From: a virus
Taxonomy: Duplodnaviria; Heunggongvirae; Uroviricota; Caudoviricetes
Virus record (IMG/VR): IMGVR_UViG_2703718862_000013
Length of the DNA: 39,189 nucleotides
Reading direction: 5' to 3' (one strand)
Notes under the pieces: generated by a model
Told to the model about the DNA's origin: nothing
Seen by the model: only the letters and a program-made list of their open reading frames with translations
Database searches by the model: none
Made by a program: the position numbers and the translations under genes
In this document: positions 1-29,023 of the stretch, piece by piece
How the letters are laid out: the number at the start of each line of letters is the position of its first letter
How positions within the stretch are numbered: the stretch's first letter is position 1

Positions 1-100
1 CGCGGCGATTTTTTTGATACCGATTTGCATTTCATTTGATACTGCTGAAAAACGCCGATACGCAACTTATTTGATACTAAATCGGCGCTTTTCTTTTGAG
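1..100. repeat. Terminal repeat array, candidate transposase-binding sites at the prophage right end
   Basis: Four copies of (T)TTGATAC / GCCGATAC at 16-20, 38-42, 57-61, 73-77; window starts CGCGGCG, resembling Mu R1 interior (TGAAGCGGCG...). Confidence 0.4.
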
Positions 101-123
101 TTTTAGAATGAGTTTTTAAGCGC

Positions 124-861
124 TCATTCACTCTCTTTCAAACCAGTTTTAACTGTTTGTGGTTTTGGGTAAGGCTGGACTTTGAATAGCTTTGTGTTGA
201 GGCGTTTTCTGGCCCTCTTGTTCAGAAACCGGATGTAACGAAACTGTCGGAACTTATGCACACTGGCTCTGTCGATATTAGCCCTCAGATGTTCACCTCG
301 TTGTCCGCCTCGTTTAATGGCATTCCTGCAAATCTCGTGATACCACTCGCCATCAAGTTCATAGAATATTGTTTCATGGCTGCCTACATAATCAAAATTG
401 CTTGCCTGATACACGACACCAAGACAGCCACAACGCTCATCTGCAAACGACTGAACCCACTGTACCTGCGGATAAAGCTGCCTGATTAGCTTGAGCGCGT
501 AACTGATTGCCCTTGATTCGGAATTTCTCGGCATACAGTCATGCATCCATAGCCGGTTCAGCTCCATATATTCTCGGTTCTGCGTACCCGTTACGACGCG
601 TGCACCACTGTTTGGGTTAAGGGCGTAACCCCATTGCATTACGCCAACAAGTTCCCGTTCTGAAAATATGCCCAGATGAAGGTAGGAGTTATTTACGAAA
701 CGGTGGCTGTAATGTTTATTGACGATAACCAGTCTGGCCAGCCAGCAACTTATTGTCTCAACCCGCAACTCACGGGAACCATAACCAACGATATTGTCGT
801 TATAGCGAATAAGTTCAGGCGTGCTGATGATACGGGATGTGACTTGCTTTCTGTTCCCCAC
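124..861 (-). CDS. mom: Mom DNA-modification protein (adenine modification, anti-restriction)
   Basis: Recalled Mu Mom signature [11 protein letters not shown]...[26 protein letters not shown]...[11 protein letters not shown]...RGGQRG...LRAN; last gene before phage end. Confidence 0.85.
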
Positions 862-1015
862 GACAGGATTTCCTTGTGTATGTGGGGTGCTCTGTGGCGC
901 TCGGAGATGTGATTTGATTGAGGGTTTTACAGCGCGGACATTTTACTTCCAGATAACTGAAACTGGCCCGTGCCAGTAGCTTATTGCAGTGTCGGCACCG
1001 TATGTTTCGATACAT
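815..1015 (-). CDS. com: Com zinc-finger translational activator of mom (ORF open to 1060; start at MYRNIRC likely)
   Basis: [10 protein letters not shown]...VKCPRCK matches Mu Com C4 zinc finger; overlaps mom 5' end as in Mu. Confidence 0.8.
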
Positions 1016-1039
1016 GGCCGCATAACCTCCTGCTTTGTT

Positions 1040-1210
1040 GTTGATGCCTTTCTCATGCAATCGATCGACAAAAACGATCGATTCGATTTGTTTAATTGAT
1101 ACAACAAATAGATTGAAAAGTCATCAACAATGATTCAGGGCGGTGATTATTTACTTAAAGAAAACGAAGAGTTAGGCGGTGAAAACGATCATAAAATGAT
1201 CATTTTATTG
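1040..1210 (-). promoter_or_regulatory. Candidate mom operon regulatory region with two palindromic GATC pairs
   Basis: CGATCG-acaaaaa-CGATCG (1051-1069) and GATCAT-aaa-ATGATC (1187-1201) upstream of com. Confidence 0.35.
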
Positions 1211-1275
1211 ACTTTTTATCCAGTGAAGGTAGGATCGCGCGTATATGTAGTATGTTTCAAATCAACAGGATACTA

Positions 1276-1314
1276 CATAAAAGGGAAACCCAGCATAGCT
1301 GGAACTATGCTGGG
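1276..1314 (-). terminator. Intrinsic terminator, minus strand, insulating the com-mom unit
   Basis: Perfect 10-bp stem CCCAGCATAG/CTATGCTGGG (1289-1314), 6-nt loop, U-rich tract after it on minus strand. Confidence 0.5.
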
Positions 1315-1501
1315 CCGATTTAGACAAGTTTGCATCAATGCTTTACTTCGGGACTACATAAATGGCGACTCAGATAGCGCGAACTATTCTGGGTCAATCT
1401 GTAAAAAACTGCATCAATGCTTCACTCTGAGCTCGTGGTGTATCCTATGATATTCCCCGGCCTCCTGTAAAGCAGAGATGCATCTGTTCAGGCAGGAGAA
1501 A

Positions 1502-1708
1502 ATGGATAAACTGACCACCGACCAAAAGTTACAGGCTGCGCGAATTGCAGCTGATATCACAATTGCAGCAATGACATCCACCAGTTGTGTCTTTACCTCT
1601 TTTCATACAGCTGGTGATTCATCAGCTATGCAATTATGGAACGCGTGCTTTTCTGATGTAATTCGGGCAATCAGCGAGTCAACTGACCCTCACGAACCGC
1701 AAAAATAG
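1502..1708 (+). CDS. Hypothetical small protein (68 aa from MDKLTT)
   Basis: AGGAGA Shine-Dalgarno before ATG at 1502; converges on 1671..1871. Confidence 0.3.
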   Translation: MDKLTTDQKLQAARIAADITIAAMTSTSCVFTSFHTAGDSSAMQLWNACFSDVIRAISESTDPHEPQK

Positions 1709-1871
1709 CGCATCTTGGGGTACACAGGATCTGCATCGCTATCCACATTGCAGTGGTGAAGTTTCGATCCTGTAATGTATTTTCATCAAGTCCTGAACGT
1801 AGCGCATTGATAATTTCTGCGCTTAATATTTCCAGACCTTTGGTATCGGGCTGCTTTTTGTTCTTGTCCAT
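1671..1871 (-). CDS. Hypothetical small protein (66 aa)
   Basis: GAGGAA Shine-Dalgarno 7 nt upstream of ATG; follows terminator/promoter-like element. Confidence 0.4.
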   Translation of the reverse strand: MDKNKKQPDTKGLEILSAEIINALRSGLDENTLQDRNFTTAMWIAMQILCTPRCAIFAVREGQLTR

Positions 1872-1907
1872 GATTATTTCCTCTGACTGGTATATACATC
1901 GCCCATG

Positions 1908-1945
1908 AAAATCAAACCGACAGGAGAAGCTGTCGGTTTGTATTG
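1908..1945. terminator. Bidirectional terminator-like hairpin
   Basis: Stem AACCGACAG/CTGTCGGTT with T-rich flanks on both strands; sits after stop of 1946..2191. Confidence 0.45.
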
Positions 1946-2191
1946 TTACATCATGGCACTGTCAGTTCCGGGCTGAACCGGCTCTGGTTGCTCTACGGGC
2001 TGAGGCTCATTCTCCGTGCTGTTTTCAGCCGGAGAATGGCCAACCATTCGGGCCAGCACTTCATCAACATATGCGTCGATTTGTGCCTCAAAATCCTTGC
2101 GAACCTGCGCCTTCAGCACGCGGTTCACTTCTTCAGAATAAAGTGCCTGTTTGACAAGCTCTTCAGTAACCGTGCCTTTAATCTCTGGCAT
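1946..2191 (-). CDS. Hypothetical protein, acidic with Pro/Glu-rich C-terminus
   Basis: ORF in operon position after esterase gene. Confidence 0.45.
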   Translation of the reverse strand: MPEIKGTVTEELVKQALYSEEVNRVLKAQVRKDFEAQIDAYVDEVLARMVGHSPAENSTENEPQPVEQPEPVQPGTDSAMM

Positions 2192-2226
2192 GAATATTCT
2201 CCTTTCCTTTTCTGGTTCACAAAAAA

Positions 2227-2412
2227 TTAAATCTGACCGGAGTCTTTCGGCTGCGGCATTACAGCACCGCTTTTTATCTTTTCCTCTGCGGCTGCATCAA
2301 TTTTATTTCGAAAATAATTTCGGATAATTTTGTAACCTCCGCTGAGGAGATAAAGTAGACACACACACGTGCAAAAATAAAGCATAAATGTATGTAGTAT
2401 TGGCATAATCAC
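2227..2412 (-). CDS. Hypothetical small membrane protein
   Basis: Single hydrophobic helix ILHTFMLYFCTCVCLLYLLSGGY; likely ATG at 2406 with GGTGA upstream. Confidence 0.4.
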   Translation of the reverse strand: MIMPILHTFMLYFCTCVCLLYLLSGGYKIIRNYFRNKIDAAAEEKIKSGAVMPQPKDSGQI

Positions 2413-2441
2413 TCACCATTTTAAATAAAATGAATTACCCG

Positions 2442-4523
2442 TCATTTATTCACATTAGACGGAGAGACCGCATCGTTAACCTGCACTTTAATTGTGTCAA
2501 ACAACATCGGGTAAGTGGCTGCATTGCCGGTAATATCGGTCAGTGTCAGTTGATCCACCGTGAACCCGGCATTCACCCACTTCACAAGTTCAAATGGTTC
2601 ACCATCTTTCCCGTCCAGAACTGGGGTAACACTCATGCTATTACCACCTGCAAACCGTAACGAGAGCGTATGCCATTCATGATCAAAGACACCATACGAT
2701 CCTATCTGTTGACTTCCGCTCCCTTTGTGATACATCACATTCAGGTTAGCTGAATCCGTTTGCAGGAAACATGATGCGATGAGGTTATTTTTTCCGTCAC
2801 CGTCAGGCCAGTTACTTACAGCCCAGTAAATACCAACACCATACCGGTTTTCCGCAATGCCCGCATCCGATGGAATTTTGAAACGGAGGGAAATATCACC
2901 ACCTCTGGCGAACAAATCCCTGGCATTATCAGCTGTGATCGGATGATACATTTTCCATGAGGCCATGCTGTTAGGCGCTTTATTCACCCTTAACGCTTTG
3001 TTACCACCTGTTGCAGCAGCATCCGTGACAAAGGTTGCTTTTCCGGAAGCCGCATTCCACCCCTGATCTTTCATTGGTTCTGTCGGGGCGTTTGCAGTAT
3101 ACGAAACGATGATCTTCATCTGATCGCTCACGTCCTTCACATCCCCGGTGGGTTCAGGCTCACTCTTACCGGTATCAGAATGTTCTGTTGCCGTTACACC
3201 GCGGAAGAAAGCAGATTTTTGTCCTGACAATGTCAGAATCGCTGTTGCCAGACGGTCTGAAATAATTCCACGGCGCGCCCATGAACTGAAATGGCTTGCC
3301 CTGTCGTTTGATGTCCAGTTAGTCGAATCGCGACTTATGGCACCATAATAGCCAATACCTGGAATATCCGGGTCTTCATCTGGATTATTTGTCGGTACAT
3401 TTTTTCCATTTTCATCCACAACAAATGGAACAAAGTGAATGTTCTTTGCTTCATTAGCATATTTGCCATAAACAGCTTTGTATTGTTCTGGATATGTATT
3501 TTTCCAGTAATACGTCGTATCACCACAGATCCACGGTACAGAAGCCATATCTCCGGCTGGAGATTGCGCAGAAAAAGCCGAAAGTTCACGCCTGAATGTT
3601 TCGACCATCGTCACAAACAGACCGGAATGTTCAGCATGTTTTCCTGTTTTCAGATCATTCTCGCCCTGCATCCAGACAACGGACAGGAGAATATTTCTGG
3701 GGTTACTGCTGAGAGCCGCTTTTGTTCGGTTAACAAGATCGCTGAACAAAGGTTTATTGACTCCCCAGCGCGATGATGCAGATGTTGCTCCGGAAGCTTC
3801 AGTAAATTCACCATCAGCACCATCGGTAAATGCAGAGCCTCCTCTGGCACAGGGAACCAGAAGGATACCAGCCTCTTCCGGGATAAAGGGCAGGAGTTTT
3901 TTTGCAATATGCAAACCCTGGCCGACACAACCATACTGACCTTTTGAAAGATCTGCTTTTGGATGATTATGGTTACTCATATCCAGCACATCATGAAGAC
4001 AGTGATCTGCCGGAATTATATCGTTGTAGGCGCATTCAACCCCGCCAGGTGTAACCGTGTTACGGCGAGCCAGCTGTTTAATACGTGGATCAGGTCGATC
4101 ATAGGTATCAGGCAAAGGAAGACCTTCACCAAATGACGATGCATTCGACTGACCAGCAATAACAACCACGTAATACCAGGACGGAGTTTGACCTGCAACT
4201 TTATCTCCTGCTGAGGAAGTGTATGTTTCCGCATTGTTCCAGTCTGACGGTTCAGTAGTACCGGCAACATCAGCACTTAACGGAATGACAGCACCAATAC
4301 CCGCTCCGGTAATTTCCACGTTCGGATCACCGGATACTGGCCTTACCCACAGGCAATCCCGTGTATTAAAACTGATGAGACAGTCAGCAAATGTCATACC
4401 TCCTTTCGTTTCAGCCGGAGGAAAGGGAGCCTCAAGAAATGCCGCTGTACCACCGGAAACTTTAACGGTAAAGTTTCCGGGCATTGATGATAGTTGAACC
4501 CATTTGGACGTCATAATATTCAT
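2442..4523 (-). CDS. nanS-p: NanS-p-like sialate 9-O-acetylesterase (SGNH/SASA domain) with N- and C-terminal extra domains
   Basis: VVVIAGQSNA...GEGLPLP, PRIKQLAR, LHIAKKLLPFIP, VPCARGGSAFT, WMQGENDL, CGDTTYYWK, EDPD..GYYG, ARRGIISDR match recalled NanS (YjhS) family; AGGA RBS. Confidence 0.75.
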   Translation of the reverse strand: MNIMTSKWVQLSSMPGNFTVKVSGGTAAFLEAPFPPAETKGGMTFADCLISFNTRDCLWVRPVSGDPNVEITGAGIGAVIPLSADVAGTTEPSDWNNAETYTSSAGDKVAGQTPSWYYVVVIAGQSNASSFGEGLPLPDTYDRPDPRIKQLARRNTVTPGGVECAYNDIIPADHCLHDVLDMSNHNHPKADLSKGQYGCVGQGLHIAKKLLPFIPEEAGILLVPCARGGSAFTDGADGEFTEASGATSASSRWGVNKPLFSDLVNRTKAALSSNPRNILLSVVWMQGENDLKTGKHAEHSGLFVTMVETFRRELSAFSAQSPAGDMASVPWICGDTTYYWKNTYPEQYKAVYGKYANEAKNIHFVPFVVDENGKNVPTNNPDEDPDIPGIGYYGAISRDSTNWTSNDRASHFSSWARRGIISDRLATAILTLSGQKSAFFRGVTATEHSDTGKSEPEPTGDVKDVSDQMKIIVSYTANAPTEPMKDQGWNAASGKATFVTDAAATGGNKALRVNKAPNSMASWKMYHPITADNARDLFARGGDISLRFKIPSDAGIAENRYGVGIYWAVSNWPDGDGKNNLIASCFLQTDSANLNVMYHKGSGSQQIGSYGVFDHEWHTLSLRFAGGNSMSVTPVLDGKDGEPFELVKWVNAGFTVDQLTLTDITGNAATYPMLFDTIKVQVNDAVSPSNVNK

Positions 4524-4613
4524 CCTGTTCCTGAATAAACAGAATTATCATATCCACAGACCGATAAACGCCATTTTGCGTTAATTCAGTAAAGGCCCAA
4601 CAAAGGGAGCGTC

Positions 4614-5174
4614 TTATTTTTCCAAAACGCTCGCAGGATAATAACGATAAAGGGTTGAAAGGCCGATATCAAAAATAAGTGCCACCTGTCTTCGGCTGAC
4701 CCCCCCGGCCAGTAAACGCCCGACCTGCTCGTATTGTTCCTGCGTGAGACGACGGGGTCTGCCGCCGGTTCGTCCCCTTTCACGGGCAGCTGTAAGACCA
4801 GCCCGTGTCCGTTCGACAATCAATTCACGCTCCATTTCTGCCAGCGCACCCATTATGTGAAAAAAGAAGCGCCCCATGGGGGTTGACGTATCAATGCTGT
4901 CAGTAAGACTACGAAAATTTATCCCCTGTTGCTGTAATTCATCTGTCAGCGCAACAAGGTGGCGCATACTGCGCCCCAGCCTGTCCAGTTTCCAGACCAT
5001 CAGCGTGTCACCGGGTTTTAGTTTCTTCAGTGCCCGCTTCAGTCCCGGCCGCTGCGTTGTTTTTCCGCTCATTTTATCTTCAAAAATCTGCTCACATCCT
5101 GCACATTCCAGCGCATTTCTTTGTAAACCTGTGTTCTGGTCATTTGTTGATACGCGTATATAGCCAATCAGCAT
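4614..5174 (-). CDS. gin: Site-specific DNA invertase, serine recombinase of Gin/Hin/Pin/Cin family
   Basis: MLIGYIRVSTNDQNT...GDTLMVWKLDRLGRSM...GRPRRLT is near-identical in pattern to recalled Mu Gin; adjacent to invertible segment. Confidence 0.95.
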   Translation of the reverse strand: MLIGYIRVSTNDQNTGLQRNALECAGCEQIFEDKMSGKTTQRPGLKRALKKLKPGDTLMVWKLDRLGRSMRHLVALTDELQQQGINFRSLTDSIDTSTPMGRFFFHIMGALAEMERELIVERTRAGLTAARERGRTGGRPRRLTQEQYEQVGRLLAGGVSRRQVALIFDIGLSTLYRYYPASVLEK

Positions 5175-5236
5175 GTATTTACCTTCCTTAAAAAGAGGTG
5201 GAAAGGCCTTTTAAAGCAGATATACGGCATCCCTGA

Positions 5237-5386
5237 AACCTCGGTTTACGGGAAACGGTAAATAAGGCGGCGAATGCCCTGCCATCGGACGGCACCGCTG
5301 CGGCAGCAAACAGACTCGCCACCCCAGTAAATATTAATGGTGTTCCTTTCGACGGGACGCGGGATATAAACATTACGTCAGGAATG
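5237..5386. repeat. Inverted repeat, left arm (duplicate of tail-fibre constant region)
   Basis: About 150 bp, ~92% identical to reverse complement of 6521-6671; same reading frame NLGLRETVNKAA..NRLATPVNINGVPFDGT.DINITSGM. Confidence 0.85.
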
Positions 5387-5608
5387 CCGGAATCAACGGC
5401 CAATCAGCGTTATGTTACAGGGGTAAGACTGGGAGCGCAGGCATTAAGCAGCGGACTGGAATATAATTACTCCCTGTCATCAGGAAATGTGATTACCGGT
5501 TTTAAGACTGACGGAGACTGGGAAATGCGTGGTGGTGATGACCGTGTTTATTACAGACAGATACAATATTGTATTAATGGGAATTGGGTATCCGCTGCAA
5601 GTATTTAA
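5237..5608 (+). CDS. Silent alternative tail-fibre C-terminal cassette (Sv'-like), no start or promoter in this orientation
   Basis: Frame continues from IR-encoded constant residues into a 73-aa alternative C-terminus related to, but diverged from, the current S C-terminus. Confidence 0.7.
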   Translation, partial: NLGLRETVNKAANALPSDGTAAAANRLATPVNINGVPFDGTRDINITSGMPESTANQRYVTGVRLGAQALSSGLEYNYSLSSGNVITGFKTDGDWEMRGGDDRVYYRQIQYCINGNWVSAASI

Positions 5609-6284: not shown

Positions 6285-7196
6285 TCAGACAGATGAAACT
6301 GTACGCCATGCATTACTGATATATATCTGCACAGGACGGAAATAAACCCCGCCAATGTTATCGGCAGAGTTTTTTCCTGTTTCCTGCACGTTAATACCGG
6401 AAAGCATACAACCGGAAGGCGCACTGTAATTCCATGACATTTCATTGCCTCCGGGTGAATGATAGCTCTGTGCTCCAAGCTGAACGTTCTGTACATACCG
6501 GCCATCTGCGGTTGACTGCGTCATTCCTGACGTGATGTTGATATCCTGCGTCCCGTCGAAAGGAACACCATTAATATTTACTGGGGTGGCGAGTCTGTTT
6601 GCTGCCACGGCGGTTCCACCCGATGGCAGGGCATCAGCAGCCTTATTTACCGTTTCCCGTAAACCGAGGTTATTGATAAAGGTTCCTTTGTCCGGGATAT
6701 CCGCGCCATTCTGGTCCCTGCGCAGATAACGCGCATCGCCTTCTCCCTTACTGTAAACATCAAGATTCAGACGAGCCGTCGGTTTATCCAGTACATCGTC
6801 AAAATTCCGGGATTTCTCCAGTGCTCCCACATCAGCAGCAGCCAGACTGTCTTTTCCTGATAATCCTCCCAGCCCCAGATGACGGCGGGCAGCAGCCTGT
6901 GCTTCTGCACCTGCATCCGCAATCTCCTTAAGGTTGTTTTTCCGGCTGTATGCGTTTGCTGCAATGATTGCCTTAATGGCTGTCACCAGCTGGTTCAGTT
7001 TTGCCTTATCCGGCTGAACCTTTCCTTCTGTCAGAATGGCAAGCAGCTCTGCCTGCACGATGTTCAGCCAGTCCTGACCGATATGGCTGATCCCTTTGCG
7101 TCCGTCACCTTCAGTAAACCATTTAACCTGCGTGCCCTGAGAGGGGGCCAGTGGTGGCATATCGGTCACACCTGAATTGTTGTCGACAAAATACAT
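6285..7196 (-). CDS. S: Tail fibre protein (S-like), constant N-terminus plus currently joined variable C-terminus
   Basis: Position after baseplate genes; C-terminal third lies inside invertible segment. Confidence 0.85.
   Translation of the reverse strand: MYFVDNNSGVTDMPPLAPSQGTQVKWFTEGDGRKGISHIGQDWLNIVQAELLAILTEGKVQPDKAKLNQLVTAIKAIIAANAYSRKNNLKEIADAGAEAQAAARRHLGLGGLSGKDSLAAADVGALEKSRNFDDVLDKPTARLNLDVYSKGEGDARYLRRDQNGADIPDKGTFINNLGLRETVNKAADALPSGGTAVAANRLATPVNINGVPFDGTQDINITSGMTQSTADGRYVQNVQLGAQSYHSPGGNEMSWNYSAPSGCMLSGINVQETGKNSADNIGGVYFRPVQIYISNAWRTVSSV
6521..6671. repeat. Inverted repeat, right arm (inside S coding sequence)
   Basis: Reverse complement matches 5237-5386. Confidence 0.85.
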
Positions 7197-28600: not shown

Positions 28601-29023
28601 TCAGAAAAGTGGCGGTTGCGTTCTTGCCAGATGCAGACGGCGCTGTTCGCGTATGACGGTATAAATCTGGGTTTCTGACATCCTGTAATGGCGGCGCAGG
28701 GTTTCAATTTTTTCGCCCTGGCTCCAGCGGGAAAAAATCTCATTATTGCGCAGTTCGGTGAAAAGGGATTCACCGACCGGGAGATAATAACCACGCCCGC
28801 CCATGTACCCGGCCTGTGCGGCCGCAACTTTACGGGCAAGCATTCCTGCCTGAGCAGGTTCAATCCCCTGACGGTGCAGTTCAGCACTGATCACATCAAC
28901 CAGGTCCCGCAGCGTGCCGGGCCAGTTCTTTTTCAGCTCATCATCAGGAATGTCATCCAGACGGTCAATCAGCGCGTGCAGCTGTTCGCTGTCACCAAAC
29001 ATGCTCATCTGTGTTTCAGCCAT
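28601..29023 (-). CDS. Mor/C-family transcriptional activator
   Basis: C-terminal HTH region ...YYLP.G.SL...LRN.EIF..W.....I..L...Y..S...IY.VIR..RR...QPPLF resembles recalled Mu Mor; Mor versus C not distinguishable here. Confidence 0.75.
   Translation of the reverse strand: MAETQMSMFGDSEQLHALIDRLDDIPDDELKKNWPGTLRDLVDVISAELHRQGIEPAQAGMLARKVAAAQAGYMGGRGYYLPVGESLFTELRNNEIFSRWSQGEKIETLRRHYRMSETQIYTVIREQRRLHLARTQPPLF

Follow-up and report, generated by a model that had tools for sequence, protein, structure and literature searches.

The DNA analyzed here is IMG/VR virus record IMGVR_UViG_2703718862_000013 (39,189 nucleotides; hereafter the window, in whose coordinates positions are given). It carries on its minus strand an open reading frame (ORF) listed as 693 amino acids, which a reading of the letters alone (the sequence-only reading) had taken to encode a NanS-p-like sialate O-acetylesterase, carried as cargo between the invertase gene gin and the com–mom genes. 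The remaining DNA of the window amounts to a complete Mu-like prophage, with transposase-sized ORFs, a homologue of C, and genes for an endolysin, a head protease, a major head protein and the baseplate. The distance between gin and com is ≈3.55 kb, as against 94 bp in Mu, in agreement with the ≈3.5 kb insertion claimed earlier. The GATC-rich mom control region is kept, with GATC sites at 1079..1063 just upstream of com. The inserted interval and its edges are as follows:

4614..5174, minus strand: gin-type DNA invertase (Pfam/PHROGs), the upstream edge of the interval
2442..4523, minus strand: esterase ORF, 693 residues as listed, with a probable start at ATG 4514..4512, giving 690 residues
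124..1060, minus strand: com (815..1015/1060) and mom (124..861), the downstream edge of the interval

The true start of the esterase is probably ATG 4514 (M4 of the listed protein), giving 690 residues. This codon is kept in five diverged alleles and is preceded by AACAGG with a 9-nt spacer; ATG 4523 is the product of allele-specific substitutions. At 4512-4523, this allele accordingly has a second in-frame ATG, three codons before the conserved one. Annotated PGAP starts differ among near-identical N-termini: M1 in the window (693 residues), M4 in the Sakai copy (679 residues) and M14 in that of O157:H7 strain N8B7-2 (672 residues).

All seven motifs that had been quoted as NanS/YjhS-family signatures were found in the protein: GQSNA at residue 124, PRIKQLAR at 146, LHIAKKLLPFIP at 204, VPCARGGSAFT at 223, WMQGEND at 284, CGDTTYYWK at 333 and ARRGIISDR at 416. 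Pfam placed SASA at residues 119-316 (E=3.9e-12) and DUF6645 at residues 540-647 (E=1.5e-32). A sequence search of the PDB matched residues 113-431 to E. coli NanS (3pt5, E=7.8e-114) and residues 472-683 to the phi24B NanS-p protein's C-terminal domain (6yp6, E=2.6e-51), so that the family assignment was upheld by database search. In PHROGs, the esterase belongs to phrog_143 (E=1.6e-260), a group listed with function unknown. No match to the esterase or the small ORFs beside it was found in NCBIfam or PADLOC, leaving a defence-system reading unsupported, and an Rfam search over window positions 1-5400 returned nothing credible (best E=0.55).

An AlphaFold2 (AF2) model of the full-length esterase, with a mean predicted local distance difference test (pLDDT) score of 68, consisted of an all-beta N-terminal domain (residues 9-81), a disordered linker (84-112), an SGNH domain (114-432), a second disordered linker (435-467) and a jelly roll (469-683). 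Along the gene, these parts are arranged as follows:

4275..4514, minus strand: Mu-lineage-specific N-terminal module (residues ≈4-83), modelled as an all-beta cupin-like sandwich, without a Pfam family and without DUF1737 homology
4185..4274, minus strand: predicted disordered linker 1 (residues 84-113, pLDDT 23-39), with a recombination breakpoint relative to the O157 N8B7-2 allele at ≈4240
3228..4184, minus strand: SGNH/SASA catalytic domain (residues 114-432), with Ser126 and Gln125 (GQSN), Gly229, Q286-G287-E288 and His411 (RASH)
3120..3227, minus strand: predicted disordered linker 2 (residues 433-468; AF2 model)
2469..3119, minus strand: C-terminal lectin-like jelly roll (DUF6645; residues 469-685), in which Y561, Y566, F586 and F654 align with the proposed phi24B NanS-p sugar site

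The sequence-only reading had described an N-terminal extension of ≈130 residues and a C-terminal domain of ≈280 residues. Both parts exist, with sizes of ≈113 residues for the former and ≈260 residues for the latter, made up of a 35-residue linker and a jelly roll of ≈215 residues. When the AF2 model was compared with known structures by Foldseek, the best matches were again 3pt5 (E=1.7e-30, template modelling (TM) score 0.83) and 6yp6 (E=7.8e-26, TM 0.89), followed by the sialic-acid-binding lectin domain of the V. cholerae sialidase and other lectins. The four aromatic residues Y561, Y566, F586 and F654 align with Y510, Y515, Y540 and F611 of the phi24B sugar site, and these positions are aromatic throughout. 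Together with the DUF6645 assignment, the modelled fold is in line with the earlier suggestion that the C-terminal domain may bind carbohydrate.

The earlier reading had also made the assignment depend on a conserved catalytic triad. This was mis-specified for NanS, which has been described as having no block V Asp and a SASA-type inverted oxyanion hole formed from GQSN and (H)QGE (PMC9487903). NanS-p proteins have these same blocks, the fourth being RSSH or RASH (PMC10462455). We therefore defined the NanS-type active site by GQSN, the block II Gly, (M/H)QGE and the RxSH His, a block V Asp not being needed (PMC9487903, PMC10462455). In an alignment of seven proteins, comprising six Mu-type alleles and one lambdoid allele, S126, Q125, G229, Q286-G287-E288, R408 and H411 were invariant; the Ser/His pair and the GQSN/QGE oxyanion hole were thus intact. 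By family, domain make-up and active-site residues, the gene is confirmed to encode a predicted sialate O-acetylesterase of the NanS-p type.

This conservation bears on the idea that the gene is in decay, a lambdoid late-region remnant without function that the Mu-like prophage carries along. An adjoining plus-strand gene (1130..1708) is indeed frameshifted in the window. However, the 2-kb esterase ORF is intact, the catalytic residues are invariant across alleles that are 37-70% identical, and full-length ORFs are kept in hundreds of genomes and in Salmonella relatives. Decay is contradicted by this conservation and is, in our view, extremely improbable.

The catalytic domain is ≈55% identical over 320 residues to that of E. 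coli NanS (YjhS, 3pt5) and appears to use the same chemistry, with a Ser-His pair, no block V Asp and the GQSN/QGE oxyanion hole (PMC9487903). Unlike NanS, the window esterase is phage-borne and adds an N-terminal module and a C-terminal lectin domain. E. coli NanS is a single-domain protein of ≈326 residues that belongs to the nan regulon. The likeness to lambdoid NanS-p (933W z1466/L0105; phi24B vb_24B_21, that is, gp84) extends further, with ≈70% identity in the SASA catalytic domain, identical SGNH block residues and 46% identity in the DUF6645 lectin-like C-terminal domain. Both proteins lack a signal peptide, and both lie among late genes. In the window protein, the highest Kyte-Doolittle 15-residue average within the first 75 residues was 0.85.

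The N-terminus is different. Lambdoid NanS-p aligns with the window protein only from residue ≈110-114 onward (≈56% identity), and its own N-terminus is DUF1737 (PF08410), whereas the window protein begins with an ≈80-residue all-beta domain followed by a 30-residue linker. For phi24B, a 2026 preprint identifies DUF1737 as a hexameric anchor that binds the capsid, part of a decoration protein processed by proteolysis, with a fold of one helix plus three strands (bioRxiv 10.64898/2026.04.10.717836). The window module was modelled as an all-beta, cupin-like sandwich with pLDDT 81-88 over residues 11-70. It gave no Pfam match even at E<=10, and its hhalign comparison with DUF1737 gave a probability of 0.2%, so that the anchor of the phi24B gp84-type capsid decoration protein is absent here. 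The N-terminal part is therefore a distinct domain that stands in place of the lambdoid DUF1737, not a mere extension.

The module is also restricted in its distribution. Searched against 1.84 billion representative proteins, it gave five matches, four of which were fragments of such esterases; the fifth, a 979-residue repetitive protein, was judged spurious. An indexed protein search with the module alone returned only three fragments, no copy was found in a scan of one genome per species, and a fold search gave no match to known tail adaptor or anchor domains.

Downstream of the esterase, the interval contains three small ORFs and a hairpin:

2227..2406, minus strand: DUF1378 small hydrophobic protein, 59-61 residues, the second cassette gene
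1946..2191, minus strand: DUF826 protein, 81 residues, the third cassette gene
1913..1940, minus strand: terminator-like hairpin just past the DUF826 stop, an 11-bp stem followed by a T-rich tail
1671..1871, minus strand: 66-residue ORF with no family match, directly after DUF826 in loci L001 and L006-L010, absent from the N8B7-2 and Sakai copies

Esterase, DUF1378 and DUF826, followed by com and mom, make up the layout of loci L001, L002, L006-L010 and L013. In full, the order in related loci is tail-fibre genes, gin where present, esterase, DUF1378, DUF826, the 66-residue ORF in most, com and mom. The 66-residue ORF sits beyond the terminator-like hairpin and may constitute a separate small transcription unit.

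A four-gene cassette (esterase, DUF1378, DUF826 and the 66-residue ORF, the last missing from N8B7-2 and Sakai) was present in all six related prophage contexts compared. We found this layout in the near-identical prophage of strain JNEC-KY203, in O157:H7 strain N8B7-2, in three further E. coli allele groups and in a Mu-like phage inserted inside Shiga toxin (Stx) phages. A megablast search of the cassette against sequenced phages returned only two records, both Stx phages with the inserted Mu-like phage. Among 5426 complete E. coli genomes, at least 205 (≈4%) carried DNA coding for the window-type N-terminus. The Sakai copy is ECs_4993 of "prophage Sp18, Mu-like phage", annotated as hypothetical, with the same locus, cassette and N-terminal module (97% identical). 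Relatives are annotated "DUF6645 domain-containing protein" or "sialate O-acetylesterase", and a protein 99% identical to the window protein (P0004) is in NCBI under the latter name. The arrangement is not rare and has been public since the Sakai genome.

Outside E. coli, a Salmonella enterica relative (L011) encodes an N-terminal module 27% identical to that of the window, fused to SASA and located after the invertase of a Mu-like prophage; this locus stops inside the esterase and gives upstream context only. The protein cluster of the Salmonella relative also takes in a Serratia marcescens fragment. In L011 and the P0127 cluster, nearly all Salmonella and Serratia copies of the N-terminal module end at contig ends, which suggests that multiple esterase paralogues break short-read assemblies and that prevalence is probably under-counted. 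The cassette belongs to the stable make-up of an Sp18-like lineage of Enterobacterales Mu-like prophages, always located between the tail-fibre/gin region and com.

Its first three genes are syntenic with a block of a lambdoid Stx2a phage, where the order is stx, nanS-p, DUF1378, DUF826, holin and lysozyme; the DUF1378 and DUF826 proteins of the window are 55% and 47% identical to their lambdoid counterparts. The two systems differ in host element, a transposable Mu-like myovirus in the window and a lambdoid phage for NanS-p, and in gene position, between gin and com in the former and between Q/stx and the holin gene in the latter.

Comparison of the window with N8B7-2 revealed a mosaic. At the protein level, residues 14-100 were 97.7% identical, the catalytic domains 68% and the lectin domains 37%. 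At the DNA level, the breakpoints were sharp: identity was mostly 96-100%, with one bin at 93%, over 4240-5229 (gin and the first ≈94 esterase codons), dropped to 38-78% over 2350-4239 (the esterase body), and returned to 91-100% over 1990-2349 (most of DUF1378, and DUF826). The N-terminal module is 97-98% identical among the window, Sakai and N8B7-2, whereas the bodies of alleles with the conserved module are only 37-70% identical.

Identity matrices for the individual domains disagree with each other. The N8B7-2 catalytic domain pairs with that of L010 (83%), while the Sakai body is closest to lambdoid NanS-p, with 81% protein identity in the catalytic domain and 79% in the lectin domain, and, from codon ≈116 almost to the stop, 81% DNA identity to lambdoid nanS-p. 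The window and Sakai alleles are 70% identical in the catalytic domain and 48% in the lectin domain. Among the lectin domains compared, only that of N8B7-2 is more divergent than that of the window, which has no more than 49% identity to any other. The window body is a rare allele, present in 4 of the 5426 complete E. coli genomes, and no donor for it was found among them. The discordant identities and the Sakai match to lambdoid DNA indicate that the Mu-type N-terminal module has stayed fixed while its enzymatic body was replaced several times, with at least one exchange with a lambdoid-type lineage. The sequence-only reading had proposed a different acquisition route for an esterase in a transposable phage. 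The Mu-like context holds, but so do the conserved lineage module, the synteny of the block with the lambdoid late region and the exchange of bodies with a lambdoid-type lineage.

A chassis-specific N-terminus, sharp breakpoints and swapped bodies are also the pattern of modular phage receptor-binding and decoration proteins. Unlike these, the window esterase gave no fold match to a known anchor and is a candidate virion protein only. Since a different and strictly conserved module carries a swapped enzymatic body on the Mu-like chassis, the N-terminus suggests a chassis adaptor.

Some tailspike esterases act on O-acetylated bacterial surface polysaccharide to help adsorption. By analogy, the window protein could be a receptor-modifying enzyme associated with the tail or baseplate, in which the N-terminal module docks on the Mu-type tail and the enzyme deacetylates O-antigen or capsule, aiding adsorption. 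The gene lies directly downstream of the block of tail-fibre, tail-fibre-assembly and gin genes, it appears from its upstream region to be expressed late, and a constant N-terminus with a swapped C-terminal body is the classic mosaic of a receptor-binding protein. O-acetyl groups of lipopolysaccharide have also been raised in a review as a possible NanS-p target (PMC8065619). However, the lambdoid homologue sits on the capsid and not on the tail (bioRxiv 10.64898/2026.04.10.717836), and activity on Neu5,9Ac2 and on mucin glycans was reported for lambdoid NanS-p (PMC8065619). Moreover, identity to NanS and NanS-p in the catalytic domain amounts to 55-70%, the lectin domain looks like modules that bind sialic acid, and the N-terminal module matched no known tail adaptor fold. 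We therefore consider a tail enzyme unlikely.

Two further features lie between gin and the esterase:

4607..4632, minus strand: hairpin that overlaps the gin stop codon and resembles a weak terminator
4547..4592, minus strand: late-promoter-like element, TTTACTGAATTAACGCAAAA at about -53 to -34, with a -10-like TATGAT at 4552..4547 and no -35 hexamer

In five diverged alleles, the esterase is preceded by the conserved motif (C/T)TGAAT..CGCAAAA and then by a -10-like hexamer, which is TATGAT in the window and close relatives. A sigma-70 scan found no promoter upstream of the esterase and no -35 hexamer 16-18 nt from TATGAT. The best other match to the esterase-derived motif in the window, with one mismatch, lay just upstream of the head-protease gene I. 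A first scan with TGAATNNNCGCAAAA, allowing up to two mismatches, gave nine matches compared with 4.8 expected, which is not significant alone. By ungapped comparison, the core shared by the esterase and I motifs was also found upstream of lys. The refined pattern CTGAWWTNNCGCAAA matched the window only upstream of the esterase, I and lys, three matches compared with 0.28 expected, a test that is partly circular since the three sites recovered are those used to refine the pattern. At all three sites, TAYGMT begins 38-39 nt past the motif's first nucleotide, and the element accordingly falls at about -53 to -34.

In Mu, P_lys requires for activation by C a 19-bp region from -52 to -34 with an imperfect dyad centred at -43.5, and the late promoters are without -35 hexamers (PMC2582627). 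A core related to this is present in Mu P_lys and P_I (ATCCCGCACC and TTCCCGCACC), and the window encodes a C homologue (28601..29023) with 40% identity to Mu C. The element is thus shared with the upstream regions of lys and I and located at the position of the C-activator site, and therefore suggests late expression. Lambdoid nanS-p is transcribed late (PMC8065619). Its control is by Q antitermination, as opposed to the presumed C-type activator promoter of the window. On balance, we think it fairly probable that the cassette has its own C-type late promoter, paralleling the late transcription of lambdoid nanS-p.

These results also bear on whether the gene is a pure lysogenic-conversion gene (moron), expressed from the resident prophage for growth on O-acetylated sialic acids, with an N-terminal module that has no phage role. 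Lambdoid NanS-p alleles were reported to support growth of lysogens on Neu5,9Ac2 (PMC8065619), and the cassette is hairpin-bounded and located in the accessory right end of the phage, as morons often are. On the other hand, the upstream region has no sigma-70 promoter with a -35 hexamer, only a -10 and the activator-type element common to lys and I, and a cytoplasmic enzyme without a signal peptide would not reach a mucin-bound substrate without lysis. Strict, chassis-specific conservation of the N-terminus across swapped bodies would also be hard to explain. A moron of this kind seems to us a rather improbable account.

Our preferred reading is a late-expressed NanS-p-type esterase, released at lysis or virion-borne, that acts on mucin sialic acids. 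It builds on the results described above (assignment to the family, an intact set of active-site residues, the domain architecture, a conserved context, the mosaicism and the shared promoter-like element) and extends them to substrate, expression timing, release route and the role of the N-terminal module. The protein consists of three modules: an ≈80-residue Mu-lineage beta-sandwich with its flexible linker, an SGNH/SASA esterase using the Ser126/His411 pair and the Gln125/QGE oxyanion hole, and a lectin-like jelly roll that would target sialoglycans. Late in the lytic cycle, a C-activator-type promoter belonging to the cassette would drive its transcription. Because it has no signal peptide, the protein would exit the cell at lysis, either free or attached to the virion via the N-terminal module. 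Outside the cell, it would take 9-O-acetyl groups off mucin sialic acids, which would open these to sialidases and to catabolism by surviving lysogens, and/or help particles in mucus. Over time, the N-terminal module has remained tied to the Mu chassis, and recombination has replaced the body of esterase and lectin, in part by exchange with NanS-p lineages of lambdoid phages. Taken as a whole, we regard this mechanism as likely.

Several points weigh against it. The full-length AF2 model is only moderately confident. Substrate specificity is extrapolated from lambdoid NanS-p and NanS, and the diverged lectin domain of the window could have a different glycan preference. For late expression, besides the partial circularity of the refined pattern, the motif was not clear upstream of com/mom or the P gene in the window, and, with C only 40% identical to Mu C, the putative operator is assigned by its likeness to that of Mu.

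Neither the enzyme family nor its C-terminal domain is new, and this very protein has already been annotated. In the searchable literature, whose scope did not take in Saile 2016, Feuerbaum 2018 and Rangel 2016, no paper joins "nanS-p" with "Mu-like" and none cites ECs4993-4995. Within that scope, three things appear to be undescribed: the Mu-lineage module that replaces DUF1737, the mosaicism of a fixed anchor with an exchangeable body, which connects lambdoid with transposable phages, and the late-promoter-like element.

Other features were observed in and around the locus. The frameshifted plus-strand gene at 1130-1708 is represented in the window by two ORFs of 106 (PHROG 26524, E=2.5e-34) and 76 residues, and is intact in Sakai Sp18 as ECs_4996 (154 residues). 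Its strand is opposite to that of the cassette, and it is located between the 66-residue ORF and com, an interval that is much shorter in L006-L008. Inside this pseudogene region is an imperfect direct repeat of ≈75 bp and ≈75% identity (1272-1347 and 1353-1426), without an Rfam match; one copy bears a strong hairpin with a 13-bp stem (1316..1287). L006 (11117-12323), L007 and L008 are Mu-like prophages with another esterase variant, in which com is followed by a 350-residue DNA methylase (PF00145, C5 cytosine) in place of Mom, apparently a swap of modification genes under com control. Beside gin, inverted repeats of ≈184 bp (5237-5420 and 6489-6671) surround the tail-fibre and tail-fibre-assembly segment, the invertible host-range segment to be expected in this prophage.

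For enterohaemorrhagic E. coli, NanS-p esterases are believed to give access to O-acetylated sialic acids of mucin. The same enzyme on an unrelated, Mu-like chassis, with a different but conserved N-terminus, suggests service to the particle or to lysis and not simple metabolic cargo. A more speculative extension, which we offer only tentatively, is that NanS-p enzymes are, as a general class, displayed on virions to modify mucin, with anchors that are interchangeable and specific to each chassis. The Mu-type beta-sandwich would then be a functional analogue of DUF1737 that tethers the esterase to the capsid or tail of the particle, and lambdoid and transposable phages would exchange bodies by recombination at the linker, with glycan specificity tuned under diversifying selection. 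The window allele, with one of the two most divergent lectin domains, is a candidate for altered glycan specificity. For the family as a whole, counts of nanS-p in genomes of Stx-producing E. coli that depend on DUF1737 or on a lambdoid context would miss the Mu-type alleles.

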